From NCBI GenBank assembly GCA_036172245.1, contig JAYWIR010000120.1, positions 62,001-104,491 of the forward strand: a stretch of DNA of 42,491 nt. Reading direction: 5' to 3'. The notes beneath the pieces were generated by a model. It was not told the origin of the DNA. It worked only from the letters and a program-made list of their open reading frames with translations, and ran no database searches. The stretch is from Raillietiella orientalis (taxonomy: Eukaryota). A program made the position numbers and the translations under genes. Shown in pieces: positions 3,536 to 41,266 of this stretch; within the stretch, counting starts at the first letter, position 1; each line of letters starts with the position of its first letter.

Positions 3536-3629
3536 TTCTGCCTTCCAACGGCCGCACTTGCAATCCACACAACACCTACTTTTGGCTTCGCTCACGGGAG
3601 CTGACCAAAAACGCGTGCGGCACCGGCGC

Positions 3630-4290
3630 AGTTCTGCCGCATTCTGCGGGATTTTTATTCCTCCCTTTACGCGCTGAGACCACCAGAGCGCTCCTCTGCG
3701 CAGCGCCTGCTGCCAGAGGGTGCTCCCGCGTTAAGGGAGGAAGAAATAAACATATTCCTCCAAGAATTCTCGACGGCGGAGATAATCTCCGCTATCACTA
3801 AAATGAAAAAGAACAAAGCACCACGGGAAGACGGCCTGCCAGCTGAATTCTACCAACACTTCGCAGCAGAGCTGGCCCCCCTGGTGCTAAAACTACGTAT
3901 GCTGATCCGTGAACGTGGGGATGTCCCCAACTCGTTCCGGTCAGCTAGAGTACGTCTCCTTCCTAAGGGAGGAGACTTGCGCAACGTTGGCAACTGGCGT
4001 CCCATTACTGTAGTGAATGCGGACGCAAAGTTGCTCGCCAAACTGTGAGCTGAGCGCCTGGCACGGGTTGCGGACTTCGTGGTCAGTCCGGAACAGACAT
4101 ACGCTGTTCCCGGACATACCTTGGAGGCCAACCTGTTCCTCGCCAGCACATTCTGGCAGTTGCAACAACGCGAGGCGCAGCTACGTCGGGAAGGTCCTGG
4201 ACTCTCTATTGATAGGAGGGAGGGAAGCCGGGAAGAAGATGCGGTGCCTGGAGCCCTTGCGGTCACAGACGATTTGCGTAAAGCTTTCGA
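3630..4290 (+). mobile_element. A' host fragment: A-family ORF2 linker/RT (QxCRIL...DLRKAFD)
   Basis: Near-identical inverted copy of about 196-855; bounded by the A 5' end and the B1 3' end. Confidence 0.9.
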
Positions 4291-4508
4291 TTTTCACCCG
4301 GATTTCCCCGGGGCGTTTATTGGAAAATAAACTTTTACAAAGACGTGCGGTGGCTGGACCATTGCTCCAGCCACGCACGAAGAAACACAGAGCCTCCCGA
4401 GTCACCGGTTCGCAGATCGGTACGGTCCACCACGGCAGCAGGGGGAAGGGGGAAAAACAAAAAGCAAAACAAAAAAGAAAAGAAAAGTTGGGAGGGTAAG
4501 GGAAGGGA

Positions 4509-7500
4509 TCAAAGTTGCTGGTGGGGCCGTTGCATCCTTTGCAGGATGCCGTTAAGCTCCTTCTGTATTTCTGGATCAAGGTGGGGCCATCGAGACGCCC
4601 TCCTCAGGAACAGGGAGGCTGGCTGGATGGCACCCTGGTCGCGTTGTCCTCCCGTAGCCTTGCACCAAGCGGTGACGATCCCGCGTAGGCAGCACAAAGC
4701 TGCTAACGAGGCCGCTGGCCGAAGGGCGTCGGCAACGAAGAGGGCTTTCAGTGCGTTCCTGGGGTTGCCGCAGGGGATTCCGATGGCCGCGGCAAAGCGA
4801 AACCAAAGGGGCCGAAGGGCAACGCAATCCACTAGCAAGTGGGGGAGGGAATCCCGTTCCCCACACCTGACGCAATTGGGGTCCATCGCTCCCCAGGTCC
4901 AGTGGTGTGGGCGGGCGTTGCAGGGGAGTCCCCAGTGCTGCAACAGGAGAGTCCACTCCTGCCATTTTAAATGGAGGGCGGAAGTGTTCATGAGCACCGG
5001 GGGCCACTTCAGATGTTCAATGGGAACATCGAGCAGCGTGCCCCAGCGCAGAAGTACATTGGGAGGCGTACTCGGGGTCGCTGCGTCTGTTAACTGGCCC
5101 GTCTTCCACTCTCCCTGCTTCTTCTCCTTCCCGGAGATTTTTATTGTAACCTCCCACTTCGCCGCAACATCGCTGTCCTGATGTTTCACTAGGGAGTCCA
5201 GCGCAGCAGCGAGGGGGGTTCTTCCTGACCACGCTCTCTCCTTAGGATCCTCCAGGATCTCGCGGAGCGTGCAACTTCTGTAACCCCCAAACAGGAACCT
5301 TCGTTCCTGTTGGGAGCGTTGCATGCGGAACTGTGCCCACGTTCGAACAATTTCCTGCAACCAGGCACTACCGTTAAACGGGCGTCAGGTGAACAATCCT
5401 GGGATTTTCCGATACAGCGCAGCCACCCTCCGTAGCTGGAGTCCGCATCGGTTGACGCGGCGACGGAGTGCAAGAAACGACGTCACTCCCGTCTTGCCGG
5501 TAGCTTGCTGGAGAAGGAGACGTGCAGGGACGCACCAACAGGTGCACCACAACTCTGGAACGAGTGCCGACAAGCGGAACTGCAGCTAAAGCTCCAGCCG
5601 CTCCAGCGTCAGGAGGCCCAGACCACCATCCCGACGAGGATCTCACAAGTCCTTTAAGCGGACTCGGGCCCTCACTTTGCCCCAAAGGGCGATACGGAGG
5701 AGGTCCTTTGTCCGCTTTTTAATCCTCTCTGTGAGGGGGCAAACAAAAAGCAGGGGCTGGTGGAAAGGAGCCGCGAACGTGTTCAAAACCGCGGCCCGTT
5801 TAGGCAGGAACAACCTGCCGCCTCGGAACGGGCCGATCGCCGTATCTACTTTTTGGAGGAAGCCATACCACGCTTCCGCAGGGGAGTAGTCCCCCAACGG
5901 CACACCAAGGTACTTGAAGTACCTCACCGTGGGGATCCCCAAACGGACCCAGTCCTGCTGCCCTGCCCACGCCGCACCAACTGGCATCACGGACGACTTC
6001 GCCCTGTTCACCGTAAGTCCGGTTCCCCGATGCAGCAGGTCGAAGAACTCCTCGACCGCCGCAGCCCGGGGTGGACATAGAAAGCAGCAGCAGAAGGTCG
6101 TCCGCGTATGCTGAAACGGCCGGCGTACCGACACAGTCGTGCGGCAGGTGCGCCAGAGTTCCCCTGTACGCTCTCAGTACCAACTCAAGGTAGGTACTGA
6201 AGAGCAAGGGACCCAGGCTGCCAACCTGCCGTATCCCACGCCGCACCGGCACGCCGTGCACGGTCTGCCCGCTGAAAGTAACATTGATGAGCGCGTCGCG
6301 CCAGCAAGAGCGCAGATAGGCCACTAATGAGGCCGGGAAGCCCAAGCGTTCTAGAAGCTCCAAAAGGAGATTCTGGTCGACGCAATCGAATGCTTTGCGC
6401 AAGTCGACTGCGACCGCAAGGGCTCTCTCCCCCACTCGACCATCCAACCCCTTGCCGGCGCACGCACCGGAATTCCGGCTGCCCACCAAGCTCCTTTCTT
6501 GTTTGAGCTCTCGCCAGGTGGAAGCGTGGAACAGGTTCGTCTCCATGCTTCGCCCGGGAACAGCATATGTCTGTTCCGGGCTGATGAAGATGTTGACAAC
6601 ACGTCCCAGACGCTCTGCCCAAACCTTAGCCAGCAACTTGGCGTCCGCATTCACTATTGTGATGGGATGCCAGTTGTTCATGCTCCTCAGATCTCCTCCC
6701 TTAGGGAGGAGCCGCACCTTTGGCGAACGAAACGAGGCGGGAACGTCACCTGTTTCGCGTATCAGCAAGGTGAGTTGCTGTACCAAACGGGTAAGCTCAG
6801 CCGCGAAAGTTCGATAAAACTCCGCGGGCAGGCCGTCCTCCCCTGGAGCCTTTCGCCTCTTGAGCTTTCCGATGGCCGAGGGGTTCTCGTCCATCGTGAA
6901 AGGCTCGTCGATGGTCTTTCTCTGCTCCTCCCCGATCGCTGAAGCGCCTTCCGGAAGCAGGAGTCGTGAGACGTTCCTCTCCGGAGGTGCCCTGGCATAC
7001 AGGGAGGAGTAGTAACTCCGCAGCAGGCCGCGGATTTGGGCAGGTGCCGAGTGCTCCTGTCCCTGATCGTCCAGTAAGCTGGCCGATCCGGACTGCCAGG
7101 CTTGCCTCTCGGCTCTTGCTTTGTATTCCGCCAGCTTGCGGATGTCGGGGGTCCTGCCGTAACGACGGGCCTGCAGGTAGGCTCGTTCGTTACGGACCCC
7201 GGTCCCAAAACCCGTGGGTAGGCGGTGCAGAGGAAACTGGTCGCAGAACTCTTGGACCGACCGCTTGAAGCGGTCCCAATCCTGGAGTGTCCGCAGACTG
7301 AAGCTCCGTATGAACGTGCGGAGATGTTCCGCCGCGTCCGTGAGCTTCAGCCAGTCCCCTGGGAGACGCAACGCTGACGAGGGGGGGCCTCTGTCGCGCG
7401 GATGGATCTCGAGGACTAGCGGGCGATGGTCGGACAGCTCGCACGGAAACTTGCCGCGCGTGCCCACGCGAGGGCACAGGTGCTCGTCAAGAAACACGTG

Positions 7501-8091
7501 GTCAATGATGTCTTCCATCCCCGGTGCACTGGCGAACAAATTACAGGTGTGCACCGCCATGCACACCTCGTTGACCAGGTCACGCTCGACATTCTGCTCA
7601 TCTGGTTTCAGGCGAAGGTTGAAATCGCCTGCAACCAGATGGGCATTCCGCACGCCTGCTTTGGTCAGCCAGTCTCGCCGGAGGGCAAGGAAAAACTCTT
7701 TCCTCGTCCTCCTGTTCATCAGGTCCTTGCCGCTCAGTGCGTACACTTTCGTGACGATCAGATCGATCGAGTCGGACGACCTGAGAGTCAGCTGGCCGAC
7801 ACGACCGTGATCGTCGAACCGCACGCCCCGAGTTGCGGCCTCGACGGCTGGCCGAAGCAGCTAGGCGACACCGCAACTTTTCGCTCTCCCACACCTGTAC
7901 CGTAGCCGCTCTCCGGAGAACCGTTTGATTTCTCGCGCTTGTTCTACAGAGATCACGTGGATCTCCTGCAGCAGCGCAAGGTCGTAGGATTCCAGAAGGG
8001 CGGCCATGTCTCGTCTCCTGCCGGCGTCTGTCATGCCGTTCACGTTCCAAACGGCGATGCGCAGACGACGGCAGGAGGAGATTCCCGGCAT
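4509..8091 (-). pseudogene. B1 ORF2 (APE-RT-Cys/His finger), frameshifted
   Basis: WNVNG, LLQE, GDFN, DHVF, SDH, KAPGEDG, DLRKAFD, YADD, FKYLG, CVRCGERDSLPHLLVDC. Confidence 0.93.
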
Positions 8092-9766
8092 TACTGCTAG
8101 GAAGATTAAGGTGTGGGGGAGCCCTACTCTTGCGAGGCGGGCGGGATGTCCATGGGGGTTTCGGCCTTCTCAGGCACCTGAGGCACCTGTTCGGCCTCCA
8201 TCCCCTCCATCCCCTCCGTGTCCGTGCGTGGGAGTCTCTCGGGCGACGGGTCTTATGAGTTTCCCACGCTCATGGCACCCCCGCTTGCGGAAGCCATCTC
8301 TTCCCCTTCGACGTGGGAGACGAGCTTCCTTGGCTTTGTGGACTTACGTCCAGCCTTCTTGAGCGGTGCCGTGGAAACGGAGGCTGCGCTTCCGGCCTCC
8401 ACCTCGGGGTCGGAAGTGGGGGAATCCTGAGGAGAGGCCGGACGCCTTAAGGCCTTCTTGCCAGCCTGGGAGGGTTCTGGCTGCAACGAGGCTGCCAGCT
8501 CCTCCGCGGCTCGCGCGAAGGCTACGTCATCGATGTTGGTGTCGTTGACGGACGCCGCCGCCGGCTCGCTCCCCTCGCTGTTGACAGTGTCAACAGAGGG
8601 GAGGTCATCGGTAGCGGCGAGTTCTTTCCGGCAGCGTTCGGCAACATGAAGAACGCGTTCGACAACGACCCTGCACTCTGTAATAATCGCGCTACCCTGC
8701 TCTTTCTTCTTCTGTTGGTAGGCGATTTTCTTTTCCATCCTCCTCTCCTTTTTGATTTTTTGGCCGTTGCCACTTGCCACCCAGTCTCCTGGCCTGCTAC
8801 CTCAACTTTTTCGGCGTTCGTCGCCGGGGTCTCGGGTGCGGCCTGGGTTTTGGGCGCGGGTAGCACAGCCTTCGCGGCAGCTTCCGCCGCCAGCGTTTTC
8901 TGCAGAAGCCGGGCGCGTTTTTTAAGGTTTCTCTTGGAAACCACCCGCACTGCTGCTTTTGGTCACACGTCCCTCGTGTGGCCCATTGTGCCGCATACTT
9001 GGCACTGCACATTGGGACACCTCTTTTTGAGGTGGCCCGACGTATTGCAGAAGCCACAGTATTTCGGCTTCCTTACATACCAGAGGTCGACGGTTTCGCC
9101 TTCGACCACCAGTTTGTGGGGAAGAGTGCAGCCCTCCCGAACGGTCACGCGCGCAGCAGTTAGGCCGTGTTGCAGCCTTGTGTAGTCCTCGAAAGGACTT
9201 ACTTTCGTCCACTGCGCGTGGACCGTTCCGAACTGTTCCAAAGCGGCGCGAACCTGTTCTTTGCGCATTCGCGCGGTGACGCCTAACAGGTGGACCACCA
9301 TGCTGCGGTGCGCCGTAGTGGGGAGGAGCCTGCGCGTCCCCATCACAATGGGGGTTTTAAGCAGTCGTTGGGCCAGCTCTGCATTTTTGCAGATGACCTC
9401 AACGTACTGACCCCCGCTGCGGATGGTCATAGCGCTGAGCTCCTCCTCTTTCACATCGAGAGCGCGCATGCCCTTCGAGAAAGCGCGCGCGCTCTCTAAA
9501 GAATATAAATTGCCGACCTTGTAGAACAATGATGGGTTGCACCCCTCCTCTACATAGGCCGAGAATTCCGCCGCGGCTGCAGGCGATGGCGCCGACACAA
9601 CGGCGCTCCACGCTTGCGCTGCAGCGGGGACCGATTCTGTGGGGGCGGATGCCCCCACCTCCATCGCCTCTGGGGGCGACGTTGCCGCCGCTTCCTGTCT
9701 CTCCATCGCCTCTGGGGGCCGCGTTGCCGCTGCCCCCTGGCCATCCTTGGTGGTCGCGTCAGACAT
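8091..9766 (-). pseudogene. B1 ORF1, frameshifted
   Basis: CGFCNTSGHLKKRC and CQVCGTMGHTR..; TAATG junction at 8093-8089. Confidence 0.88.
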
Positions 9767-9860
9767 CGCTGCCTGATCGACCACCGAACCACACGACGCT
9801 TGCACTGGGGGAGACTTCCTGGCACGAGGAGCACCGAGAAAACTCGTTCATCCTGGAGCG

Positions 9861-11978: not shown

Positions 11979-11988
11979 TCGCCGAAAG

Positions 11989-12230
11989 TCGGTGTGGGAG
12001 GACGTGTTTTTTGGTCGCTTCGTTAGCGCTTGTCTGAGAAGCAACCGGAGTTTTTAGTGTAATCAGGTGTAAAGTTTGGATCGTTGGTGTCCGATGGCAG
12101 CCGTGCCAGATGACACCGCGATGGATGTAGTCGTGTGGGAGGCATGTCCTCCCACACAACCTGTAGCTACGGGGGCAGCAGCCCCTGGACCGTCTGGCGG
12201 CCTCAATGTGGGGTTGCCGACTTTCCCTAC
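11989..12230 (+). mobile_element. F': 5'UTR + ORF1 start fragment related to F
   Basis: GGACGTGTTTT at 12000; ATCGTTGGTGTCCGATGGCAGC shared with 29374-29395; boundaries approximate. Confidence 0.7.
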
Positions 12231-15014
12231 TGGTAACTAGCGAAAATGCTTTGTCGCCTCCGGGTGACTAAGCTAGTCTGCTGGCATCCTCCAAACACAG
12301 TTTGGAGGACCCTTGTTTGGCGGGAGCATCTCGAACTTGAGCCTGTTGTGGTCTGAAAGCACAGACGGCATGGGACCTCTCCGACCCACTCGAGAGAGCA
12401 AGTGTTCATCGAGGAATACATGGTCCGGTGATGTCGCCATAACAGGGTCGTTAGCGAACAAGTTGCACTCGTGCACGGACGCGTCCATCTCTTCCACTTG
12501 CAACTTCTCCCTTTTGTGTGCGCTATTCTCGGTCAGCAGGTGGACGTTAAAGTCCCCCGCAAAAAGATGCGCAACAGTAGGGTGAGAACGAGTAAGCCGC
12601 TGGCTCTGCAGGGTACCGAAAAACTAAATCCTTTCGGCAAATCGTCCAGCACAAATCGGCGGGTACACGTTCGTTACGACAAGGTCGATCGAGTCGGACC
12701 ACTTGAGTACAAGCTGTCCCACACGGCCTTCCGTGTCGGAGCGAACGCCGCGCACCGCTTCCGCCAAATTTCCTCGCACGAGGAAAGCGACGCCGCACCT
12801 GTAATGTAGCTTTCCGCCTGCACGTTATTCGATTTCGGCAGCCTGCTCTTCGGAGATGCTGTGAATCTCCTGCAGGAGCGTCAAGTCGAAGGCACGCAGA
12901 GCGTTAGCTACTAGTCGCCTCTACTCGTCGTCTTGGAGACCGTTGACTTTCCAGCACGCCACGGCAACACGACGAGAAGACGCGATTGCCCTCATCACGG
13001 CTGGGAAATTGAGGCCGTGGTGCTCGCCTCATTCGGCGAGCGGGCAGTAAGCAGCACGACGGGGTGGAGGGCGCGGTCACCACTGGCCTCCACCGTGCTC
13101 CGCGTAATCGAGTGCTCCTCCCCGGGTGCAGAACCTCTGGGTTCCGGGGTGAGCACTCGCCGTTCCTCAGCGAGTGTGTCACGCCTCAGGGCTTCAGCCT
13201 TGCGGGAGCTCGCTCCGGCGCGAGTAATACGTCGTTCAGCGGCGTTATCGGACTCCTTTACGGAGTCTGATGCTTGCGCAAACGAAGTGCGTTTGCATCC
13301 GTCCGATCGCAACGGAATCGTCTTCTCGGCGCTCACAGAGGCGGACTTGCAAGCGTTGACGGCGCTGGCTTTTTCCTGGGCAGAAGAATCCTCCGCGCGT
13401 GTTTTCTTGTTCAAGCGGCTGTTCTTCGCCCTCCAAGAGCTCGCAGATGGAGGTTGCGAAGTCTTCTTGGGAGATTTTTTTTTCTCCTCTCCACAACCTT
13501 GCATTCTTCGTCACGATTTTCGGACGCTTCCGCGACTTTCGTCCCGGAAACCTCCGGAGTTTTCTCTGTTGCCTCTAGGGGCGTTGCTTTCGCTACGCCT
13601 TTAAAGGGAGGCACTGAAGTCACCTTCTTGGAAGTCGGGAGATTGCTCCTCTCTTGCCTAGTCGGTGAAAGGGCGGCTGCATGCAGCGTGTTTTTGCGCG
13701 GCGCGCCGCGGCTTGCTACGAGTTTTGTAGCCGCTGCAGAGATCCTTACGTTGGATTCAGGGTTTGCCGGTTTGGGAAGGGATAGCGGGTTGGAGCTGGA
13801 AGTCTTCGCCCTATGGCGATCTTCTTGCTCACCTATCTTTCCTACCGAAGTTCTTCGGATATTTCTCGGTTCCTGGCTTGGAGAGGTGCTTCCAGTACGG
13901 CAGCGAACGCAGGCACGGAACGCGTCTAACCCTCGCGCCCCTTTTCTATTGGCTTCCCTGCCGCGATTTCTCCCTTTTGTGGCGTAGCGGGCTGGTGCGC
14001 CTTTTGTATTGCCGCGTATTGCTTGTCTCTTTTGCCAAGACTCCGCGGACACTGCTTTTTCTTGCGGGCAGCGGCCTTTTGTGCGTTGGTATCTTGAACG
14101 CGACGAACTTCCGCTGCTGCGCTTTTCTTTGCAAGGACCGGGCACTTTTTTATTTCGTGCCCGGTTTCTTTGCAATAGCGGCATTTCCGGATGGGACATT
14201 CCTTTATTCGGTATCCTTCTTGGCCGCACTGCTACCACTCGCGAGTCTGTCCTAGAAACCACAGGTGAACGACCGTGCCGTTCACCTGCAGCTGCTCGGG
14301 CACAACACGCCTGTTCGCGACGGTGATCCGCGAAAACGATTGACCAATGCGGACAGAGGGAAAATCGTTTAGAGGATTTGGCCTCCTCCACAGGGCATGC
14401 ACGGTGGCGAACTTCGCCAGCACACTTACGACATCGCGGATGCAGATTTCCGGCTCGATGTCGCACAATTGGACGACAAACGAGTCGTCCATCACGAAAG
14501 GCAGGACTTCCTTGCCACCGATAGACAACGGAGTACAAAGAAGACGCTGCACAAGTGCCGCGTTTTTACACCGTACCTTGGTGTATTCCATCCTGCCCGC
14601 AGGCATGATGGCAAGGAGCTCCTCCTCCCGAACGCCGATCCGGACGAGCTCATCTTTGAGCTCACGCCCGGACCTCCCGTTAAGGGGCCCACTGACCTTA
14701 TAACGGAGTGCGGGCATGTAGCCGGATGCTACATTAGCCCGCAACTCCGCATCGCAGGGTCCTGTTCCCTGGGAGGTGACGGCGGCGTAGCTCCTCACCA
14801 AAAGCGAGGAAACCGTCACGGAGGATGCGGCCGCTTCCATTCCTATTGAATTGGATTCAACGGCCGTCTCCTCCACACCATTCCCAGAAGTGGCCATGCT
14901 GCACAACGCTGCTTGGTTGACTCCCAAGAAACGCACAAGTGCGAGCGAAAATCACGCACAAAGATGTTCGATCCAGGACGCGGAGAGACGCGAAAACACG
15001 TCTACACTGTGTGA
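12231..15014 (-). mobile_element. G: 5' half of a LINE (ORF1 about 14897-12995; ORF2 APE 12995-about 12231)
   Basis: AGACGTGTTTT 15003-14993; RRM-like ORF1 with decayed knuckles; TGATG junction; LLQE, GDFN, PDHVF, SDH. Confidence 0.88.
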
Positions 15015-15324
15015 GCGCAGGAGATCGAACGGATCTCCGGAGGGCGGCTGTGGTACAGGTGTGGGAGAACGAAAAGTTGCGGTGTCGCCTACCTGCTTCG
15101 GCCAGCCGTCGACGCCGCGGTTTGGGGCTTGCGGTTCGACTATCACGGTAGTGTCGGCCAGCCTACACTCAGGTGGTCCGACTCGATCGGTCTGATCGTC
15201 ACGAACGTGTACGCACCGAGCGGCGCGGACCTGATGAACAGGAGATCGAGGAAAAAGTTTTTCCTTGCACTCCGGCGCGACTTGCTGACCGAAGCAGTGC
15301 TGCAGGCGATTTCAACGTTCGCCT
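15015..15324 (+). mobile_element. B2a: B-family APE fragment (host)
   Basis: AQEIERISGGRLWYR...AGDFNVRL, matching B3 at about 35293-35622; resumes at 26886. Confidence 0.88.
15309..15324 (+). repeat. 16-bp TSD, left copy (ATTTCAACGTTCGCCT)
   Basis: Exact match to 26886-26901. Confidence 0.92.
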
Positions 15325-16698
15325 TCATACGAGTCGGACGTGATTTCGTGTCGCTCCGTGGTTCCGCTGTTTGGCTGTGTTTGTGAATCCCACTGCACAT
15401 CCCTAAGGATGAGCAGTGAACAACGCAACGTGGAAGACCTCGAGCCTGTGGTTCAGGAACTTTTCGCAGCTGGAGTGATGGCGACAACGTGTGCGAGCCC
15501 GCCCCACCGGCCAGGAGCTTTGCGGACGTGGCTTCTTCTGCAGCCGTACAAAAATAGCTCCCCGACTAGGCGGAGATGCAAGCCCATGTAGCCCAGGGCT
15601 ACAAGCCTGCTCTCCGCTATAACGTAATTGGTGTAGGAAAGGCTCGGGAGGAGTTCGCGGACGAACTCTACCGTGTGGGAGTGCGAGAAGAGGACCTCAT
15701 AGCACTCATGCCTGTTCCAGCATTGGGCTATGTGAAAGTCCGATGCAAGCAGGCTGCACTTGTGCAGAGGCTTGTCCGCACTCCTTTGACTTTCCGCGGA
15801 AAGAAAGTTTTTCCTTCCGCGATGGACGAGTCTTTTGTCGTTGTTCTCTCGGCCATGGAGCCGGAGATCAACGACAAACAGTTGATGGACGCGTTGGCGA
15901 AATTCGCAACCGTTCATGCGTTGTGGGGGAACGAGAATTCCTACAGGAAATTCCCTTTTGTACACACAGAATTTGCTGCGATTAGGGTAACCGTTCCTAA
16001 CCGCCGCACGCTGTCTGCCACGCTACAGGTCAACGGCACGGTCGTTCATCTGTGGTTCGTTGGCAAAACTTGCGCGTGCGAGCAATGCGGCAAAGAAGGG
16101 CATCGAGGTAAGGAATGTTCTTCCCCGAAGTGCCGCTACTGTAAGGAGTCCGGGCACGAAATTAGAAAGTGCCCGGACATAAAGAAAAAAAAAGGAGGCT
16201 GCTAGACTCCGGCGTGCCAAAGAGTTCGCAAAGGAGGAAACAGCATCCTCAAAAAAAAAAAAAACAGGGAGGCTCGCGAAAGGCCGAAGATAAAAAAGGC
16301 CCGAACGCGGTCTCAAAGTTGGCTCCCTCAGCATCAAAACCCAAAAAGAGCAATTGCGCGGTACGGAAGCCATTTTGAAAAGGGCGAGAGGGCTCCGCGC
16401 GTACCGTTACTGTCCCAGTAGCTGATCGAGGAAACGCTACTCGCGAAATGGAATCAGTTACACCAGTCGCTCCGTGCGACAAGGCGAAAGAAGGATACGC
16501 GGGAGAAAATTGCGTGGTAACCGTCTCCTTGAGGGCTCTGTCCATTTCGGAGGCTTCAGTCAAAAACCTCACGAAGGCGTTTGCAGGTTCGTCGAAAAAA
16601 GCCAACGAAAGCTGCGTTCCGTCGCCTCAAAACACGCAGCAACCAGCTGCATCCTCCCCAACAAGACAGGTTTCTTCAAGTTCCACAAGGAGTGGAAC
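15325..16698 (+). mobile_element. D 5' part: 5'UTR + ORF1 (ATG about 15409)
   Basis: GGACGTGATTT at 15336; CEQCGKEGHRGKEC and CRYCKESGHEIRKC. Confidence 0.88.
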
Positions 16699-16770
16699 AA
16701 ATTTATTTTTCAAGAATTTTTCTACAAAAACATTCACGCTACAGTCTCATTCATACCATTTGCACTGTTT

Positions 16771-19700: not shown

Positions 19701-20328
19701 TGGTCATAATGTCTCGAAAACCCTGAATGCGATTCCCAAGTTCGGTGCTGTGGAGGACGTGATCGATCGGCTTGTGGCTTGCTGTTCGCCACATCAGTCA
19801 AAACTCTTCCGATAGCCGCCGATACGCCGTCCTTCCTCTGGCGTCTTGTGAATAGGTGATCTCATCCAAGATGTTGAGATCGCCAGCAACAATCACGAGG
19901 TCCTTGGGGGCAACCTTTTCACGGAGTGCTCCATGAAGTGCCTCCGCACAACGAAGTTTTAGCCTGTGCGGCCCGTACACGTTCACCAGTATAAGGTGAA
20001 CAGTTGCGGACCAGGCCAGTCGCACGCCGATGATTCGTCCGGGTTGGGGACAGAACACTTCCAGGATAGTGGGGGCTAAGTGGTTCTTTATTAGCACCGC
20101 CACACCCTTCGTGTTCCGTTCTCCTTCGTTGAGGAACATCTGCCCGTTGAATCGCCGTTCCATTCGCTGGCTTATCTCCAGACCCATCCTGTAAGTCTCC
20201 TGCAGGCACACGATGTCTTGTTGTGCGATGGTCCGCACAATCCTTCTTCTTTTTCCCTGGTCGACCACACCGTTTACGTTCCAGGAGGCGATGTTCATCC
20301 CCCTGGCGGTCGATAGGGAAGAGGCCAT
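16771..20328 (-). pseudogene. J ORF2 (APE-RT-finger)
   Basis: ASWNVNG, CLQET, NVYGP, GDLN, IDH, DMEKAFD, RQGDSLSP, YADD, KYLG, CTACG; many stops/frameshifts; 3' end approximate. Confidence 0.88.
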
Positions 20329-20341
20329 AAAAGGGGAAGAC

Positions 20342-25900: not shown

Positions 25901-26574
25901 ACAGTAGCCATCCGGCAAGGTGGGAGTTCTCCTGCACCATCGCAGGAAGAAAAAAACCAGTTGGCGAATGGACCACGAGCCAGCTTGCGGATGCCGCCAC
26001 TCCTCGTGCTACATCAAAGGGGTTTCTTCGGTGGGGAGAAGCTCTTGGTGTTGCCCCCGAGGAACTGATAGTCCATTTCTGCTGTTTGGACGGTTCGGTG
26101 TTTCCCCTTGCATGAATGCAAGATGTTTTGCTTTTTTTGCACTGGGAATTGCGCTACAACCAGCGGCGCCACCGAGTTTCCGGTTGGGTGGCTTCTCCCT
26201 ACTGTGCCCGGTGCGGAGCGACGGAGTCGTTACCGCACCTTATTATGGACTGCGGTGCCATCCAGGAACTGTGGAGGAGGCTAGCAGCAGCTCTTCCGTC
26301 ACCAGGAGACACCGCTCGAGAAGTGCTGCGACGGTTCTTCCAGACACAAGGACTTTCGATGGCTGCGACGATTTCCACTGTTGGTTGCATCCGCGCCATC
26401 GTCACGGTCCGAGACGTGCTGGAGAATACTGGACAGCAATGTTGTGTCACCAAGAAGGCAGCTGACTTCATAAGGTCGGCAACTGGGTGGCGACACTTAT
26501 ACGAGGACACAACGGAGGAGCTAACCGTTATCCACCGCCGGATCAGCAACGGCTTAGAACGACGAAATCAATGA
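22982..26574 (+). pseudogene. D ORF2, full span, few lesions
   Basis: WNVNG, LLQE, NIYAP, DFN, PDHIF, SDH, DLHKAFD, YADD, CARCGATESLPHLIMDC. Confidence 0.93.
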
Positions 26575-26770
26575 TCCGCCCTCATTTTATTTTCGACTGG
26601 TTTTTTTGTTCTCGCGTCCTTTGCCCGATACGCTCCGCAGTCCTTTTGGTGCTAGAACTTTTGAGTTTCTGGGTGAGTGCGGAGCAACACCAAAGTTCCC
26701 TGGAACACTCCTCCCATTCACAAATTTTTTTTTTTTGGACTCCCCTCAGTCGTCCATGTTCTTCCGTTTT

Positions 26771-26788
26771 CCTGGCCTGCGTGCCAGG
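26771..26788 (+). other. 3'UTR RNA hairpin with CUGCGU loop (representative)
   Basis: CCTGGC-CTGCGT-GCCAGG; equivalents with different stems in other lineages. Confidence 0.72.
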
Positions 26789-26885
26789 GGTGAATCTCCG
26801 ATGCATGTTTTCAGAGTTGAGAGCTCGAAACAATTGTTTTCAGCTCGTTTATGTCAATAGACGTCCCAAAGTGACCGGGTGAAAA

Positions 26886-26901
26886 ATTTCAACGTTCGCC
26901 T
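26886..26901 (+). repeat. 16-bp TSD, right copy
   Basis: Exact match to 15309-15324. Confidence 0.92.
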
Positions 26902-29299: not shown

Positions 29300-31333
29300 A
29301 GGACGTGTTTTTACTTAGATCCCAAGTGAGTCGACAGGAAGCGGTTTTTTCTGTGTGTTTTTTTGTGTGGAACATCGTTGGTGTCCGATGGCAGCGATGC
29401 CTGACGACACCACGATGTAGGTAGGTGTGAGGGAGGCTTGCCCATCCCCAGAGCCTACAGAAACAGGGTCGTCCGCCCCGAAATCGTTCTCGCCGCTCAA
29501 GGCAAGGAGCTGGAGCGCCATGGTGGCCGCGCCGAGCGCAGAAACCATGGCCGAGATAACAGCCTACCGGGCAGCTGGGTACAAGCCCATTCTGGCATAC
29601 CAGGTAGACAATCTCTTTGACGGGCGAACTGCACGCGCTTTTTCGAAGGCGCTGCAGAACGCCAACGTATTAGAGAAGGATCTTGACGGTCTATCCGTGC
29701 TCAGCGGGGGTCAGCGCGTCGAGGTTGTCTGCAAGGACATCACCTTGGCGCAAAGCTTGATTACTACCCCGCTGAACGTGGGCGGACGCAAGATCCTGCC
29801 AGTCACGATGGACCGCTCCGTAGTGGTACATCTGACAGGGATCACCAGCCGCATGACGCGATCTGCGTTTGATGATAAGCTGAAAAAATACGGAGAAGTT
29901 CACGCGTTATGGCCAAAGGCCACAATCTTTTATGGCTACTGTAGCCTTTTCGGAGGGCAGGCCGCCGCGCGTGTGACGGTGAAGAAGGATAGTGGGATTT
30001 TCCACAAACTAGAGGTCAATGACGAAGTCGTAGACTTTTGGTACGTGGGGAAACCCCGCATTTGTGGCTACTGCAATCCAGTAGGACACTTGTGCAAGCG
30101 GTGCCCGAACATTGTGTGCCACTTATGCGGGGAGAAGGGCCACGTGCGCCGCGTATGCCCTAAACGCCCCACTCCGGTGCCACCTGCCGCAAAAAAAGCG
30201 CAGGCAAAACGCGGAAAATTGGTCGAAACACCAAAGGGAGATACTGGCTGGCAGCAGCCGCTAGCCCCCGTTCCTCAGACACAGGCGTCGGAAGAAAAAC
30301 CTTCCGAAGACGCGGGAGTCCAGGACGGCTGGCAGCTGGTTAAGGCCAGGAAGGAGAAAAAGGTGTCCCCAGCGGAACCCGCGAAAGCGGTCAAAAAGAC
30401 AGTCGGCAAGGCGGAAAAACCTGGGCCGCTCTCCAAAACCATGCGGGAATGTACAATGGCACTGGAACGCATAGCCGTTTCCGAGACTGCCACCCGGGAC
30501 GACGAGCCTCCTCTCGCCGTTTCCGCCGCGCCCGAGGTTCGCGACGGCGAACCCTCTGTTTAAACAGAGGGTGAGCCGCGCGAAATAGCGACGGTCGAAG
30601 TCGAGGACGCCGCGTTCGCGCCGGCGGCGGAGGAGCTCGCGGCCACGCCGGCCGAGCGTGAGAACCACTCGCGCAAGGCCGTGCGAAGGCCGTCTTCCGC
30701 AAAATCGGTTCCTAAAGGTGAGTTGGACCTGGGGGACGGAAGTACATCCTCCTCCTCGGAGGCACCCCGCAGGAAGTCGAAACGCAAGTCTCAGAAGCCC
30801 AGGAGGCGCCTTCCCTCCACCAGCGAGTAGAAGCAGGAAGGTAGCGGAAGCGTGGGAATCCAGGAAAGGGAACTCCCACGCTCGAAAGCCGTCGAGTCGG
30901 CCACCCCGCTGGAAAAGGGTGAGCAGGAAAGCGAAGTCCTCCCTGCAGTCGCGGAGCCTGAACAGCCCGCCTCCATGGAGGAGGGCCAATAGGTAGGCGC
31001 GAACCCACCTGAGGTTTACCCGCTCGAGGGGCCGTTACCCATGGAGGAGGAAGACCAGGTGCACGCAACGCCTGACCCTCCTCCTCCACCTAGCTTCCCG
31101 CCCCATTAGGTGGCGGACGCCGCATCGACATCTTTCCAGGAGTAACACCGGTGCTCGCCAGTCGCCGTCGGATTCGCGCCGCCTGTTCGAACGACAACGG
31201 GATGCGCGACGACGGTAACAGGCGAGATACGGCCGACACCCTGCGTAAGCTTGACCTGGCCCTGCTGCAGGAGATCCACGTGATCACCGCGGCAGACGCA
31301 CAGGAGATCAAGACGATCGCGGGGGGTCGGTTG
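29300..31333 (+). mobile_element. F: 5'UTR, ORF1 (about 29388-31145), start of APE
   Basis: GGACGTGTTTT 29301; CGYCNPVGHLCKRC and CHLCGEKGHVRRVC; LALLQEIH...AGGRL; 5' junction between 29290 and 29300. Confidence 0.88.
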
Positions 31334-33415: not shown

Positions 33416-36400
33416 TGCTCCAGGGTGGCCGTGTTTTCTCGGTGCTCCTCGTGCCAGGAAGTCTCCCCCAGTGCAAGCCACGTGTGGTTCGGTGATCGAT
33501 CAGCAGCGATGCCTGACGCGACCACCAGGGATGGCCAGGGGGCAACGGAAACGCCGCCCCCAGAGGCGATGGAGATGGGGGCATCCGCCCCCACAGAATC
33601 GGTCCCCGCTGCAGCGCGGGCGTGAAGCACCGTTGTGTCGGCCCCATCGCTTACAGCGGCGGCGGAATTGTCGGGCAATGTAGAGGAGGAATACAACCAC
33701 TCATTGTTCTACAAGGTAGGCAATTTATATTCTTTAGAGTGCGCGCGCGACTTCTCGAAGGGCATGAGCGCTCTCGATGTGAAAGAGGAGGAGCTCAGCG
33801 CTATGACCATCCGCAGCGGGGGTCAGTACGTTGAGGTCATCTGCAAACAAGCAGAGCTGGTTCAACGACTGCTTAAAACCCCCGTGGTGATCAGGACGCG
33901 CAGGTTCCTCCCTATTAAGGCGGACCGCAGCATGATGGTCCACCTGTTAGGTGTTAACGCGCGGATGCGCAAGGAACAGGTTCGCGCCGCGTTGGAAAAA
34001 TACGGAACGGTTCACGCGCAGTGGGAGAAAGTAAATCCCTCCGAGGACTACACGGGGCTGCAACACGACCTCACGCCTGCGCGCGTGACCGTTCGGGAGG
34101 GCTGCACTCTTAACCACAAACTGGTGATCGAAGGCGAAACCGTCGACCTCTGGTATGTGGGGAAGCCGAAATACTGTGGCTTCTGCAATACGTCGAACCA
34201 CCTCAAAAAGAGGTGTCCCAATGTGCAGTGCCAAGTATGCGCCACAATGGGTCACATGAGGGAGGTGTGCCCAAAAGAAGCAGTGCGGATGGTTTCCAAC
34301 AGAAACCTTAAAAAACGTGCCCGGCTACTGCAGAAAAGGCTGGCGGCGAAAGCTGCCGCGAAGGCTGTGCCACCCGCGCTTAAGGCCCAGGCCGCACCCG
34401 AGACCCCGGCGAACAACGCCGAACAAGTCGAAAGAACTAGCCAGGAGCCTGGGTGGCAGGTGGCTACGGCCAAATAATCAAAGAAGGAGAGCAGGATAGA
34501 AAAAAAAATCGCCTACCATAGAAGAAGAAAGAGCAGGGTAACGCGATAATTAAAGAGTGCAGCGTCGTCCTCGAACGCGTTCTCGATGTTGCCGAACGCT
34601 GCCAGAAAGAACTCGCCGCTACCGACGACAAATCCTCTGTTGACTCTGTCAACAGCGAGGGAAGCGAGCCGGCGGCGGCGTCCGTCATCGACACCACCAT
34701 CGATAACGTAGCCTTCGCGAGAGCCGCGTAGGAGCTGGCAGCCTCGTTGCAGCCAGAACCCTCCAAGGCTGGGAAGAAAGCCGTAAGGCATCCTGCCTCC
34801 CCACAGGAATCACCCACTTTCGACCCCGAGGTGGATGCCGGAAGCGCAGCCTCCGTTTCCACGGCAACGCGCAAGAAGGCAGGACGTAAGTCCACAAAGT
34901 CAAGAAAGCTCGTCTCCCCCGTCGAAGGGGAAGAGATGGCTTCCGCAAGCGAGGGTACCATGAGCGTAAGAAACTCTCGGGACCCGTCGCTCGAGAGACT
35001 CCCACGAGCGGACACAAAGAGGATGGAGGAGGTGGAGGCCGAACAGGTGCCTCAGGTGCGTTAGAAAGTCGAAATCCCCGTGGATATCCCGCCCGCCTCG
35101 CAAGAAGCGGGCTTTCCTACACCTTGATCTTCCCAGCAGTAATCCCGGGAATCTCCTTCCGCCGACGTTTGCGCATCGCCGTTGGAACGTGAACGGCATG
35201 ACAGACGCCGGCAAGAGACGAGACATGGCCGCACTTCTGAAGCCCTACGACCTTGCGCTGCTGTAGGAGATCCACGTAATCTTCGCAGAACAAGCGCAAG
35301 AGATCGAACGGATCTCCGGAGAGCGGCTATGGTACAGGTGTGGGAGACCGAAAAGTTGCGGTGTCGCCTTCTTGCTTCGGGAGTCTGTCGAGGCCGCGGC
35401 TCGGGGCACGCGGTTCGAAAATCAAGGTCGTGTCGGCCAGCTGACTCTCACATGGTCCGACTCGATCGATCTGATCGTCACGAAAGTGTGCGCACCGAGC
35501 GGCTCGGACCTGATGACCTGGAGGGCGAGGAAAGAGTTTTTCCTTTTCCTCCGGCGAGACTGGCTGACCGAAGCAGCCGTGAGGAATGCCCATCTGGTTG
35601 CAGGCGATTCCAGCGTTCGCCTGAAACCAGATCGGCAGAATCCCGAGCGTGACCTGGTCAACGAGGTGTGCATGACGGTGCACACCTGTAATTTTTTCGC
35701 CAGTGCACCGGGGATGGTAGACAGCATTGACCACGTGTTTCTTGACGAGCACCTGTGCCCTCGCGTGGGCAGGCGCGGCAAGTTACTGTGCGAGCTTTCC
35801 GACCATCGCCCGCTAGTCCTCGAGATCCATCCCCGCGACAGGGGCCCCACATCGTCAGCCTGGCCTCTCCCAGGGGACTGGCTGGAGCTCCCGGACGCGG
35901 TGGAACATCTCCGCACTTTCATAGGGAGCATCAAGCTTGGGACACTCCAGGAGTCGGACCGCTCCAAGCGGTCGGTCCAGGAGTTCTGCGACCAGTTCCC
36001 TCTGCACCGCCTACCTACGGGTTTTGGGACCGAAGTCCGTAACGAACGAGCCTACCTGCAGGCCCATCGTTGCGTCAGGACCCGCGACATCCGCAGGCTG
36101 GCGGAATACAAAGCGGGAGCAGAGAGGCAAGCTTGGCAGTCCGGATCGGCCAGCTTGCTGGCCGATCAGGGCCAGAAGCACTCGACACCCGCCCAAATGC
36201 GCGGCCTGCTGCGGAGTTACTACTCCTCCATGTATGCCAGGGCACCTCTGGAGAGCAACGTCTCACGACTCTTGCTTCCGGAAGGCGCTCCAGCGATCGG
36301 GAAGGAGGAGAGAAAGACCTTCGACGAGCCATTCACGATGAACGAGATCGTCTCGGCCATCGGAAAGCTCAAGTGTCGCAAGGCCTTAGGGGAGGACGAA

Positions 36401-36713
36401 CTGCCCGCGAAGTTTTACCAAACTTTCGCGGCTGAGCTTACCCCCTGGTATAGCAACTCACCTTGCTGATACGCGAGACAGTTGACGTTTCCTCCTTGTT
36501 TCTTTCGGCAAAGGTGTTGCTGCTCGCTAAGGGAAGAGATCTGAAGAGCATGCACAACTGGCGTCCTATCACAATAGTGAATGAGGACGCCAAGTTGCTA
36601 GCTAAGGTTTGGGCAGAGAGGTTGGGACGGGTTGCCAACATCTTCATCAGCCCGGAACAGACATATGCTGTTCCCGGGCGAAGCATGGAGGCGAACCTGT
36701 TCCACGCTTCCAC
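33416..36713 (+). mobile_element. B3: B-family 5' part (ORF1 33509-35142; ORF2 35142-36713)
   Basis: Leader TGCTCCAGGGT-GGCCGTGTTTT; collinear with B1; ends at NLFHAST. Confidence 0.92.
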
Positions 36714-36747
36714 CTATGTATCTCCTGCTGCTGCAGGAGATACATAG
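36714..36747. repeat. Perfect 15-bp inverted repeat at the B3/K junction
   Basis: CTATGTATCTCCTGC-tgct-GCAGGAGATACATAG. Confidence 0.9.
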
Positions 36748-38840: not shown

Positions 38841-39128
38841 CTGGCGCAAAGTACACCGCGTAGTCAAGCGCTACTACTCCTCGTTGTACGCGGAGGAGCC
38901 CACGGAACGCAGTCTCTCCAAGCTGCTTCTTTCGACGGGCAACCCTGCTATCGAGGAGGAGGAACGCGCCAGATTGGATTGGCCCTTCACGGCGGAAGAA
39001 GTGTCTTCCGCCATAGCGGGCCTGAAGAGGCGTAAGGCGCCTAGGGAAAATGGCCTGACCGCGGAGTTCTTTCACTGCTTCGCGGCGGAGCTCGTCCCCC
39101 TGGTGCTAAGCCTTTCCTTGCAGATGCG
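38841..39128 (+). mobile_element. K part 2: linker/RT start (KVHRVVKRYYSSLY...LQMR)
   Basis: Resumes the frame interrupted at 37668; KAPRENG. Confidence 0.82.
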
Positions 39129-41244
39129 TTTTGAACTCGGTTGCGCCGGGACGTTTATTTGTAAAAGCGAACCACAATCTTCAAGGCAAATTCATCCTTT
39201 CGAGACACAAGAAACGCCCATACAGTAAGTTCAGTTCAGAAAGATCACCGGCACGCAGGGTGCCTTCCAAAAGAAAGGAACGGAAGGAGAGGGATGCAGA
39301 ATAAACAAAACATAAGGGAGCAAACAAAAAAAAACAGTGAAGGGTGGGGTCAGGGATCTTTGGTAGCAAACGTTCCTAATCTTTCTAGAAGCGCTGTTTG
39401 ACAATGGCGACTTCCCTGGAGACTTTTCTGGGCAGATGAGGCCACCTGACAGCTGTTTCATAAGGTTCGCAGCGATTCTGGCGGCGTCCGTTCGCTGCGA
39501 GCTTCCTTTAAATTTACGGCGGGCGATCACGATGGCGCGGATGCAAGAGATTGTTGCGATAACAGCGCCTTTATCCAGTCCGACTTTGCTGAAGAAGCGT
39601 CGAAGCAGGTCTGTGCCAGTGTCCTGAAAACGACGTAGTGACTAAGCAAGTCTCCGCTATACTCCCTCAAGTCACTTCACTCAAGGAGCAGGTGCGTAAG
39701 CGATTCTATCGCCCCGCACCTGAGGCAGTTCGGGGAGACGACTCCCCCTGTAACCAAGTTTCTGCGCTTATTGAACTGGAATCCCCAGTGCAGAAAAAGA
39801 AGAACATCCTGTTTCCATCGAAGCGGGAACACGGAGCTGTCCACACACAAGGAAGGGACCACGAGATCTTCGAGGAGTAATCCAAGAAACTCACTCCAAC
39901 GAAGAAGTCCCTTTGCCAGGTAACGAGGAGTGGCAGCGTCTACCAACACGCTCGTTCTGCAGCCGCTCAGCAGTCTTCTCACTCCTGCAATGCTGCAGAA
40001 GAGCTTCCACCTTGCCGGTTGGCTACTGTCGTTGTTTGCCCTGAGAGCAGACAGCGCTGCGGCGATGGGTGAGACGACTATCCAGGACCAAAGCGACCAG
40101 TCCTGTACGATCACTCCTAGCGGTTCGCGTAAGAGGCCCTGTAAGGGTCGCAGTTGCTCTGGGCGTACATCCAAAGTTGACGTCCAGTGCTCCAGAGCTT
40201 CCTGCTGCCAAGCATTCCAATTGGAGGGGCGGCAGGAAATCCAGGCATGGGCTAACAGCAACGAGGACAAATGCCTCAGCGGGTAGCCAAATCCAGTTCT
40301 CCGGCGAAGGTTGGGCGGCAGCAACGAAAGCAATCCTGCACTGCCGACACATCGCTGGAGAATATGACGAGCCGGAGCACACCAGTGACTAAACTACAAT
40401 TTCCCACATAGGGATAGAAGCCGGAACTGCACTTGCAGTCCAATCTTCTGGATGCTCAGGATGCTCAGATCTGCGTCCTGGCATGGCGCCACCAAATCCT
40501 TAAGGCGAACCCTGGATCGCGCAGCGCCCCACAAGACCTTACGTAGCAGACGCTGCGCCCGGAGTTTAACCACATAGGGAGACAAGCAAACAAAAAATAA
40601 GGGGTGGAGGAGAGGGGCAAGGAAAGTGTTCCATATGCACGCCCTTTCCGGAAAGACGAACTTGCCTTCCAGGAACGTGCCTAGAGCCATCTCTGCTTTT
40701 GAAGACGGGCCGACCACGATTCAGACGAGCAGAAGTCGCCCAACGGTACGCCAAGGTACTTGAAGTACCTGACCGTGGAAATCCCCAGACGGATCCAGTC
40801 GGCCTGTCCCTCCCACGACGCTCCCACCGGCACGACGGAGCACTTCGCCCTGTTAACGCTCATGCCCGCTCCACGACGGATCAGCTCGAAGAAGTCTTGG
40901 ACCGAGTCCGGCGGAGTAGACATGGGCAACAGAAGCAGAAGGTCGTCGGCGTATGCTGCCGCGGACGGAGTGCACGGAGAGGCGCTGGGCAGGATGGCCA
41001 GCGTCAGCCTGTACGCTTTTAGCGCCAACTCAAAGTAGATGCTGAAGAGCAACGGGCCTAAGCTGTCGCCCTGTCTGATGCCGCTGCGCACGGCCACTCC
41101 GTACACACGGCAGCCACTGAAATACAAGTTGATAATCGCGTGGCGTCAGCAAAAGCGCAAGCACAGGAGAAGATGATTCGGAAGCCCATAACGCTCCAGG
41201 AGCTCCAAGAGGATTTTCTGGTTTACGCAGTCGAATGCTTTGTG
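39129..41244 (-). mobile_element. E: 3' half of a LINE (RT from HKAFD to 3' end)
   Basis: RQGDSLGP, YADD, FKYLG, CLRCGAIESLTHLLLE, AATAAA 39159-39154. Confidence 0.9.
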
Positions 41245-41266
41245 TGCTCCATGGTGGACGTGTTTT
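41229..41266 (+). promoter_or_regulatory. Putative Inr/DPE-like core promoter spanning the host/element junction (representative copy)
   Basis: gcA(41229)gtc with GGACGTG at 41256 (+28); motif recurs at 3618, 9849, 12000, 15003, 15336, 29301, 33427. Confidence 0.55.

Follow-up and report, generated by a model that had tools for sequence, protein, structure and literature searches.

The 5' ends of non-LTR retrotransposons in the window, by which we mean the whole stretch of 42,491 nt analysed here, carry a common word, RGACGTGTTTT, and comparison of the copies indicates that it is a cis element of the 5' UTR common to at least six related LINE families. We infer a promoter role for this motif, and the position of the transcription start, as the most likely interpretation. 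Specifically, the motif is tentatively read as an element-borne downstream promoter element that would fix the start of the RNA at the first bases of the element, a reading to which we give somewhat less than an even chance. The motif itself, its conservation, the lengths of the leaders in front of it, one TSD of 16 nt and the site-specific insertion of one family (B) are established observations. The original prediction had put forward a promoter split between element and target DNA; its observation of a motif, a leader and a geometry relative to position -27 is partly confirmed. That geometry appears to be largely real, and the sequence itself leans away from a split promoter.

The whole window is a nested cluster of non-LTR retrotransposons encoding endonuclease and reverse transcriptase. 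A domain search of the window yielded matches to PF03372 (E = 1.4e-8 and 2.2e-7) and PF00078 (E = 6.4e-15); PF00098 (zinc knuckles) was matched in three ORF1s, and the match to PF13966 was weak (21 bits vs. a cutoff of 27.5). The elements are APE-type LINEs: endonuclease, reverse transcriptase, zinc knuckles in ORF1 and a TSD together with an A-rich 3' end were all found. Seven 3' ends in the window read AATAAAYG...GGGTGRMAA(A), that of the reference copy B1 being AATAAACG...GGGTGAAAA. ORF1 of B1 comprises an RRM-like region and CCHC knuckles, and its broken ORF2 encodes endonuclease and reverse transcriptase. Reading frames are broken in every copy within the window, and the ORF1 sequences of different families are only 25-56% identical. 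The elements and boundaries needed in the following are:

1..3629, minus strand: element A, 5' end at about 3627-3629, runs past the window start
4292..9860, minus strand: element B1, 5569 nt, reference copy with 5' UTR, ORF1 and broken ORF2
11976: 3' end of element C, 24 nt upstream of the C2 motif
15325..26885, plus strand: element D, host of the nested LINE K
about 17050-22700, minus strand: divergent LINE K, nested in D
31335-33415, minus strand: element N, target of B3
33416..36716, plus strand: element B3, reference positions 1-3346, antisense insertion in N
39126-41244, minus strand: element N2, target of B4
41245..42491, plus strand: element B4, runs past the window end, antisense insertion in N2

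The 5' end of LINE K was looked for and no placement was found; element F was considered as the continuation of G and rejected on inspection of the alignments by eye. A search with a reverse transcriptase ORF returned 13 proteins with a single close one at 72% identity, and a search of protein clusters gave generic LINE clusters only, with mixed taxa. An alignment of seven ORF1 sequences was too divergent for use as a search profile. With an alignment of four, 592 stretches were matched in metagenome contigs, none of which was confirmed. Contigs of one DNA run (X1; word share 0.11) compared with positions 3400-20000 contained fragmentary related copies, the 5' junctions of which were without usable coverage.

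All eight motif sites claimed by the original prediction at 5' ends are present at the coordinates and on the strands given there. The number of mismatches is zero in four copies, one in two and two in the remaining two:

3608..3618, minus strand: motif of A, GCACGCGTTTT, two mismatches
9839..9849, minus strand: motif of B1, GAACGAGTTTT, two mismatches
12000..12010, plus strand: motif of C2 (a 5' fragment), exact
14993..15003, minus strand: motif of E, AGACGTGTTTT, exact
15336..15346, plus strand: motif of D, GGACGTGATTT, one mismatch
29301..29311, plus strand: motif of G, exact
33427..33437, plus strand: motif of B3, GGCCGTGTTTT, one mismatch
41256..41266, plus strand: motif of B4, exact

With at most one mismatch allowed, the window contains seven matches against 1.39 expected, a number reached by none of 100 shuffles; six of the seven lie at 5' ends and the seventh (6596-6606, minus strand) within an ORF2. 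Once two mismatches are tolerated, the word loses its rarity (32 matches vs. 18.6 expected in the window), and the 7-mer RGWCGTG on its own is likewise common (32 vs. 23 expected). ORF1 starts 75-110 nt downstream of the motif in all eight copies, and a profile built from them found no ninth, the next best match having E = 6.8. The motif is the sole conserved block in the 5' UTRs of six families, the remainder of which cannot be aligned, and six of its 11 positions (C4, G5, G7 and T9-T11) are invariant in 8/8 copies. The possibility that it is a target of the endonuclease was rejected, since the insertion sites lie elsewhere than the motif. RGWCGTG corresponds to the old Drosophila DPE consensus. 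The likeness to a DPE that had been claimed holds for the exact form in five of the eight copies and only for the looser RGWYV in B3, while A (GCACGCG) and B1 (GAACGAG) deviate; this consensus is that of Drosophila, and the TFIID of the host may or may not recognise such a DPE.

An 11-nt leader ahead of the motif had been claimed for A, B1, B3, B4, D and G. This is correct for the three B copies and for D, whereas in A the boundary is ambiguous and the leader measures 9-11 nt. In E, where the boundary is also ambiguous, it comprises 10-11 nt. The leaders with sharp boundaries are:

9850..9860, minus strand: leader of B1, 11 nt, with counterparts at 33416-33426 (B3) and 41245-41255 (B4)
15325..15335, plus strand: leader of D, TCATACGAGTC, 11 nt, bounded on its upstream side by the TSD

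Among the B copies identity amounts to 62-75% in the flank, jumps to 92-95% at the start of the 11-nt leader and stays at 92-95% over the 100 nt after it; the leaders themselves have 8-10 of 11 bases in common. The claim does not hold for G, in which homology with the target element reaches 29299, one base ahead of the motif, in all three comparison copies. Judged by this homology, the supposed leader of G is target DNA, and G has no element-borne leader. The copy at 12000 (C2) had been described as not fitting, and indeed another element has its 3' end just 24 nt before the C2 motif.

LINE RNA normally begins where copies begin to agree. Following our preferred reading, a factor bound to the DNA at +12 to +22 would set the RNA start some 9-11 nt upstream, so that the motif, lying downstream of the start, would always be carried in the RNA. 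The length of the leader would be kept while its sequence drifts, and copies would agree from the leader onward as the RNA would start there. The conservation of the motif, its fixed distance from the boundary and the onset of agreement among the B copies at the leader all argue for such an internal promoter. A further point in its favor is the initiator-like TCA or TCG with which the leaders of D, E, G and C2 start, an initiator-like start inside the element that at the same time speaks against a target-derived initiator. The leaders of G and C2 are the most alike of 15 pairs (7/11 matches), which would suggest leader inheritance, and the two sites have no homology beyond -11; yet the support from C2 is weak, as P = 0.012 for that pair becomes 0.18 upon correction for 15 pairs. 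A CGTG-type downstream element is known in insect LINE promoters and in Pr77 of L1Tc, as described in the part of PMC4748587 cited here, and according to the same text the DPE family acts at +28 to +33. Several observations weigh against an internal promoter: the exact DPE form in 5/8 copies, a -27 flank that is initiator-like beyond chance, and a pyrimidine as first leader base in B, D and E. A pyrimidine at the start is unusual for Pol II, and we know of no core-promoter element at +12 to +22.

The flank at -27 bears directly on the model of the original prediction. There, the motif would be a DPE at +28, transcription would start at the first TSD base, the initiator would come from the target, and the RNA would carry 16 nt of target that anneal to the new target, making the 5' junction precise while the element keeps its length. 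It is possible that the remaining half of a promoter comes from the target DNA; the model as a whole we regard as rather doubtful. The target sequences concerned are:

15309..15324, plus strand: 5' copy of the TSD of D, ATTTCAACGTTCGCCT, 16 nt, GDFN codons of an endonuclease gene
26886..26901, plus strand: 3' copy of the TSD of D, identical to the 5' copy at 16/16 positions
41229..41244, plus strand: 16 nt of target just before B4, AGTCGAATGCTTTGTG, antisense to KAFD codons in a reverse transcriptase gene
33400-33415 (at B3) and 9861-9876, minus strand (at B1): counterparts of the 16-nt target of B4

The TSD of D is the sole perfect one found in the window; none was found for B1, MJ, N, P, N2 and C, the junction of P showing just a 4-nt overlap (AAGT). 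The flanks of B1 overlap by 17 nt in reference coordinates, and the two copies, which stem from different target families, agree at 11/16 positions. The seven hexamers quoted at -27 read as stated, and the coincidence of -27 with the first TSD base is true of D only (16/16) and approximately of B1.

Resemblance to TCAKTY is highest at offset 27 of 53 offsets, with a mean of 4.0/6 against a background of 1.93 and 3-5/6 at single sites; since B1, B3 and B4 share the same homologous target, the seven sites are not all independent. P is 5e-5 if the offset is taken as pre-set and 8e-4 given the +1 bases. The family-wise P is 0.003 for five families, 0.018 without G and 0.075 without B. The initiator-likeness of the flank at -27 thus exceeds chance, and offset 9, the element start, ranks joint second (3.4/6). 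It is very improbable that the motif is a functionless inherited relic and the -27 pattern chance. The broken reading frames of all copies in the window, the common ancestry of the families and the framing of the hypothesis after the data had been seen would agree with such a relic, but six invariant motif positions in 8/8 copies of a UTR that has diverged past alignment, and the family-wise P of 0.003, do not.

For a split promoter speak, besides the DPE form in five copies, the rank and family-wise significance of offset 27 and the position of the first TSD base in D and, roughly, in B1, the strict site-specificity of family B, all three copies of which sit antisense at one KAFD column in three target families whose targets are 62-75% alike. 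The B site reads GCAGTC and matches TCAKTY at 5/6 positions. Generic nick sites do not resemble an initiator: against AKTY, the window's seven 3' junctions reach 15/28, which is chance level, so a nick-site preference fails to explain the -27 signal, a point that also counts against our preferred reading. R2 likewise uses target sequence on the 5' end of its RNA, as the cited text of PMC3774820 describes.

On the other hand, a full-length copy arising at a non-identical site would, according to the split model, internalise 16 nt and acquire a 27-nt leader, and this is seen in 0/8 copies. The segment from -27 to -12 is local target DNA in all families, as evident from the perfect TSD in D, from homology to other copies in E and A, and in G; the B copies agree only from -11. 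In the 16 nt upstream, B copies agree at 10-15/16 positions and unrelated reverse transcriptase copies at this site at 10-14/16. The 16 nt of B3 differ at 5-6 positions from those of B1 and B4 and therefore come from the new target. A 5' flank travelling with B was rejected, flank identity being no higher than the target level. Site-specific insertion, as far as these alignments indicate, holds for family B only, A, D, E and G being represented by one copy each in the window. G is without an element-borne leader and C2 does not fit; the invariant T run falls outside a DPE, and the model gives no need for start site and nick to coincide. Priming on the A-rich 3' end leads one to expect an A at the first TSD base in any case; given the +1 bases, P rises to 8e-4, and the family-wise P is 0.075 once B is removed. 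The split promoter would survive only if all families were site-specific and the first 16 nt of the RNA were replaced at each insertion. On our preferred reading, the purine at -27 would instead be the mark of the first-strand nick of the endonuclease, 16 nt (the TSD) before the element, and the initiator resemblance near -27 would be a property of the chosen targets and not a promoter half.

On either reading, the window contains LINE families whose insertion targets are the best-conserved codons (KAFD, GDFN) of other LINEs, a clear instance of transposons parasitising transposons. An extended version of the split model, which we consider unlikely, assumes a guild of site-specific LINEs that would home into the conserved ORF2 codons of other LINEs and would have given up their own initiator. 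The nick would fall at an initiator-like word, the DPE of the element 27 nt downstream would rebuild the promoter only at cognate sites, and the 16 target nt would guide 5' joining as for R2 and 28S.

Could the motif act in the RNA or cDNA rather than in DNA? It might serve as a site for the ORF1 or ORF2 protein in packaging, cis preference, completion of reverse transcription or second-strand priming, which appears quite improbable to us. ORF1 does have an RRM-like region and CCHC knuckles, RRMs typically bind GU- and U-rich words, and the 3' ends contain a word of formal similarity, GGGTG and then an A run. A 6-bp hairpin, GACGUG-loop-CGYGUC, can form in D and E, and the U-to-A change of B1 in alignment column 17 pairs with U24 where B3 and B4 have U-U. 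The hairpin is, however, missing from A, C2 and G, and this restriction to some families favors the internal promoter over an RNA fold. The consensus fold has just -2.41 kcal/mol and six pairs, most of them broken in two to three of the eight sequences, and a role in RNA leaves the fixed distance from the 5' end without a reason.

That the 5' end results from RNA processing, a self-cleaving ribozyme with the motif in its core cutting a co-transcript at the boundary or at -27, is hardly credible. Precedents exist, as R2 does so, in some cases with a cut in the target as far as 36 nt upstream (in the cited text of PMC3774820), and a ribozyme is reported for the 5' end of L1Tc (in that of PMC4748587). 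Here, the whole window contained no Rfam family at E ≤1 apart from three unrelated weak matches, and two 301-nt 5' regions contained no ribozyme family at E ≤10. A test for a 7-bp P1 helix gave 6.21 pairs at -27 and 6.05 at -11, the average for all offsets being 6.21, and no conserved nested structure was found among the sequences of the motif copies. As the covariance-model and P1-pairing tests were both negative, a self-cleaving 5' ribozyme was rejected.

LINE promoters must lie inside the transcript, and to our knowledge the fixing of the start site is known for few LINE families only. Should the motif fix the start some 11 nt upstream of itself, it would be the second very proximal downstream positioning element after the YY1 box of L1, and it would do so in six families. 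A split promoter, if true, would be the first promoter to which a mobile element and its target each contribute a part; expression would then depend on correct homing, and no ribozyme would be needed to account for the precision of the 5' junctions.

Among known systems, HeT-A is driven by a promoter that resides entirely in the 3' end of its upstream neighbour, and Tx1L is a LINE with a specific insertion site in another transposon. Neither HeT-A nor Tx1L splits an initiator and a DPE across a junction. The YY1 box of human L1 is located at +13 to +21 and, as Athanikar reportedly found in 2004, sets accurate initiation at the first base of L1; like the window motif it is a downstream site near the 5' end, while its sequence and presumably its factor differ. 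The cited passage of PMC3286893 describes it as the sole feature common to otherwise unrelated types of L1 5' UTR.

By description, the window also resembles Zepp and ZeppL of green algae, nested clusters in which L1-type LINEs have integrated into copies already present and for which the cited texts give a high GC content (61%) and cluster sizes of 1.5-42.3 kb (PMC3446292; PMC8226300). Those clusters consist mostly of 5'-truncated 3' ends in tandem, whereas the window holds several families with many full 5' ends in both orientations, and AATAAA precedes the 3' end here in place of TGTAA. R2 carries target nucleotides on its RNA 5' end for joining, just as the split promoter would have it, but, as the part of PMC3774820 cited here describes, obtains them by co-transcription and ribozyme cleavage and not from a promoter split at the junction; no ribozyme was found here. 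The insect LINEs jockey, Doc, F, I and G, TRAS1 and SART1 from Bombyx, and Pr77 of L1Tc likewise conserve a CGTG word in the first tens of nucleotides of the 5' UTR, which travels with the RNA and is essential for start-site-specific transcription by Pol II, as the cited text of PMC4748587 states. In these elements the start is the first nucleotide of the element, with the word at about +25 to +34; in the window it occupies +12 to +18, counted from the DNA boundary, and, unlike its insect and L1Tc counterparts, is followed by an invariant T run.

Self-comparison and mapping onto one complete copy of family B (B1, minus strand, 5569 nt) resolve the window into about 17 pieces of non-LTR retrotransposons that are related, occupy both strands, are nested within each other and are partly rearranged. 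No cellular genes were found within the window, G+C content is 56-60% across most of it, and the long open reading frames encode Exo_endo_phos, RVT_1 and zf-CCHC domains as well as a sub-threshold zf-RVT domain. A divergent LINE (K, about 17050-22700, minus strand) nested in element D has a lower G+C content (51-55%) and a 646-residue ORF1 that includes a zinc knuckle; it lacks the 5' motif RGACGTGTTTT, and its word depth in the DNA run X1 is several times that of the other elements. A 663-nt inverted repeat (196-858 and 3628-4290, 95% identical) was also noted, the latter arm of which comes from the interior of an A-family element, lies head to head against the A 5' end and stops at the KAFD site where the 3' end of B1 attaches. 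No relatives were confirmed in metagenome contigs.

The motif is a conserved 5' UTR feature of six LINE families (A, B, C2, D, E and G), the three B copies not being three independent pieces of evidence. All eight predicted copies are present. With at most one mismatch the window holds seven matches (1.39 expected; seven reached in 0 of 100 shuffles), six of which are 5' ends. At up to two mismatches the word is not rare (32 versus 18.6 expected), so that the two-mismatch copies of A and B1 are recognised by position alone. The eight 5' UTRs can be aligned only at the motif, where C4, G5, G7 and T9-T11 are invariant, and around the start of ORF1, which is 25-56% identical between families. A profile built from the eight copies retrieved no further one in the window.

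According to the original prediction, an 11-nt leader separates element boundary and motif, and the base 27 nt upstream of the motif is the first of the target-site duplication (TSD). Both hold for D, whose perfect 16-nt TSD (15309-15324 and 26886-26901), the only perfect one in the window, leaves 11 nt; the second is proven for D only. The leader length also stands for B: pairwise identity between B1, B3 and B4 is 62-75% in the 800-nt flank, rises to 8-10 of 11 bases within the leader and reaches 92-95% further in, and the leader therefore belongs to the element while the flank does not. It is 10-11 nt in E and 9-11 nt in A, where the boundary is ambiguous by 1-2 nt, and fails for G, in which the 11 nt before the motif continue the homology to the interrupted target (three of three comparison copies) up to one base before the motif. 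C2 was rightly named as a misfit, another element's 3' end lying 24 nt upstream of its motif copy. Four of six families have leaders opening with TC, which are otherwise unrelated; they come first in the list below, followed by the B leaders and the target words similar to these:

15004-15014, leader of E (TCA)
15325-15335, leader of D (TCA)
29290-29300, leader of G (TCG)
11989-11999, leader of C2 (TCG)
9850-9860, 33416-33426 and 41245-41255, leaders of B1, B3 and B4
33363-33373 and 41192-41202, target words resembling the B leader

The B leader, YGCTCCAKGRT, resembles CGCTCCAGGAG, a word of the target that precedes the junction by about 45 nt. Leader-like words number 31 in the window, 2.5 times the count for shuffled versions (12.5); the leader may be a captured piece of old flank.

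Family B is a LINE that homes into other LINEs at their catalytic motif. All three copies (3/3) lie antisense at the same column within the codons for KAFD, motif A of the reverse transcriptase, in target elements from different families, only 62-75% alike. D, in sense within the GDFN codons of an endonuclease gene, is a second insertion into coding sequence for a strongly conserved motif. Three junctions, at the 5' end of A, at the inserted LINE piece P (overlap of only 4 nt, AAGT) and between the pieces M and J, cluster within about 20 nt (homologous B1 coordinates 2811-2834), which suggests a second hot spot. An inverted repeat of 9 bp lies in the target site of G (CCGTAACGA ... TCGTTACGG, with arms about 22 nt apart), and B-type copies conserve it.

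9861-9876, 33400-33415 and 41229-41244, target stretches of B1, B3 and B4; also 4276-4291
3628-3650, 37650-37668, 38848-38860 and 29130-29140, clustered junctions
29255-29299, inverted repeat at the G site; homologous 7155-7197, 27323-27355 and 36035-36045
4292-9860, complete copy B1
3628-4290, left flank of B1, 95% identical to A
9861-11976, right flank of B1, only 74%

The B1 flanks thus stem from different families, and its two would-be TSD copies agree at only 11 of 16 positions; this points to later rearrangement, probably by recombination between B copies after insertion.

When the Drosophila initiator consensus TCAKTY was slid across 53 offsets (8-60), the best was 27, where the hexamers had been quoted correctly, with a mean of 4.0 of 6 for seven copies and five independent families alike; offsets 9 and 13 follow (3.4, five families), and random window hexamers average 1.93. 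A sum of 20 from five random sites has P = 5e-5 (8e-4 given the observed +1 bases), and the maximum over all offsets P = 0.003 with five families, 0.018 without G and 0.075 without B. The pattern is therefore beyond chance, although the hypothesis arose from the same data, and the original observation is largely real. Priming on the A-rich 3' end would in any case be expected to place an A at the start of the TSD. Endonuclease preference as the cause gets no backing from the seven 3' junctions in the window, whose agreement with AKTY (15 of 28 positions) does not exceed chance.

Since a LINE copy is the DNA image of its RNA, the RNA normally begins at the 5' boundary of the copy, which here lies 9-11 nt before the motif. 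We lean, tentatively, towards an element-borne promoter element with transcription starting at the element's first bases. This is favoured by the TCA/TCG openings of the D, E, G and C2 leaders, by the position of the invariant T run outside the DPE, by the 7 of 11 leader bases common to the related pair G and C2 (top of 15 pairs; P = 0.012, 0.18 after correction) and by the lack of homology between C2 and the G site beyond -11. It is disfavoured by the pyrimidine opening the leaders of B, D and E and by the missing backing for endonuclease preference; moreover, we know of no element working at +12. The word also has exactly the DPE form which PMC4748587 describes in insect LINEs and, in the shape of CGTG, in L1Tc, and this likewise counts against such an internal start.

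A split promoter, in which the motif would cooperate with an initiator supplied by the target at the first TSD base, seems to us possible but doubtful. The site-specificity of B speaks for it. However, RNA starting at -27 would leave 27 nt before the motif in full-length copies at non-identical sites, as seen in none of the eight. The 16 nt upstream of the leader are local target in every family, B3 showing 5-6 differences from B1 and B4 there, as an unrelated copy of the reverse transcriptase would, and the model therefore needs strict site-specificity in all families and replacement of the first 16 nt of the RNA via annealing to the new target. Such annealing to the target is postulated in PMC3774820 for R2 with a ribozyme cutting upstream in 28S. 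An RNA-level signal such as a protein site is improbable: it leaves the fixed distance unexplained, and a conserved RNA hairpin is confined to D, E and, in part, B. The remaining probability is shared by a ribozyme, which none of the tests run on the window and the 5' regions found, a relic or another cause.

The elements have in common a 3' end made up of AATAAAYG, then a short hairpin of GC type, then GGGTGRMAA(A). It closes with no more than 2-5 A and looks like a structure recognised by the reverse transcriptase and not like a long poly(A) tail:

4292-4331, 11950-11976, 26856-26885, 27881-27920, 31335-31374, 37669-37708 and 39126-39165, 3' ends of the shared type

As a lead only, the window resembles the Zepp clusters of green algae, a likeness not favoured by the conserved AATAAA found here in place of TGTAA.
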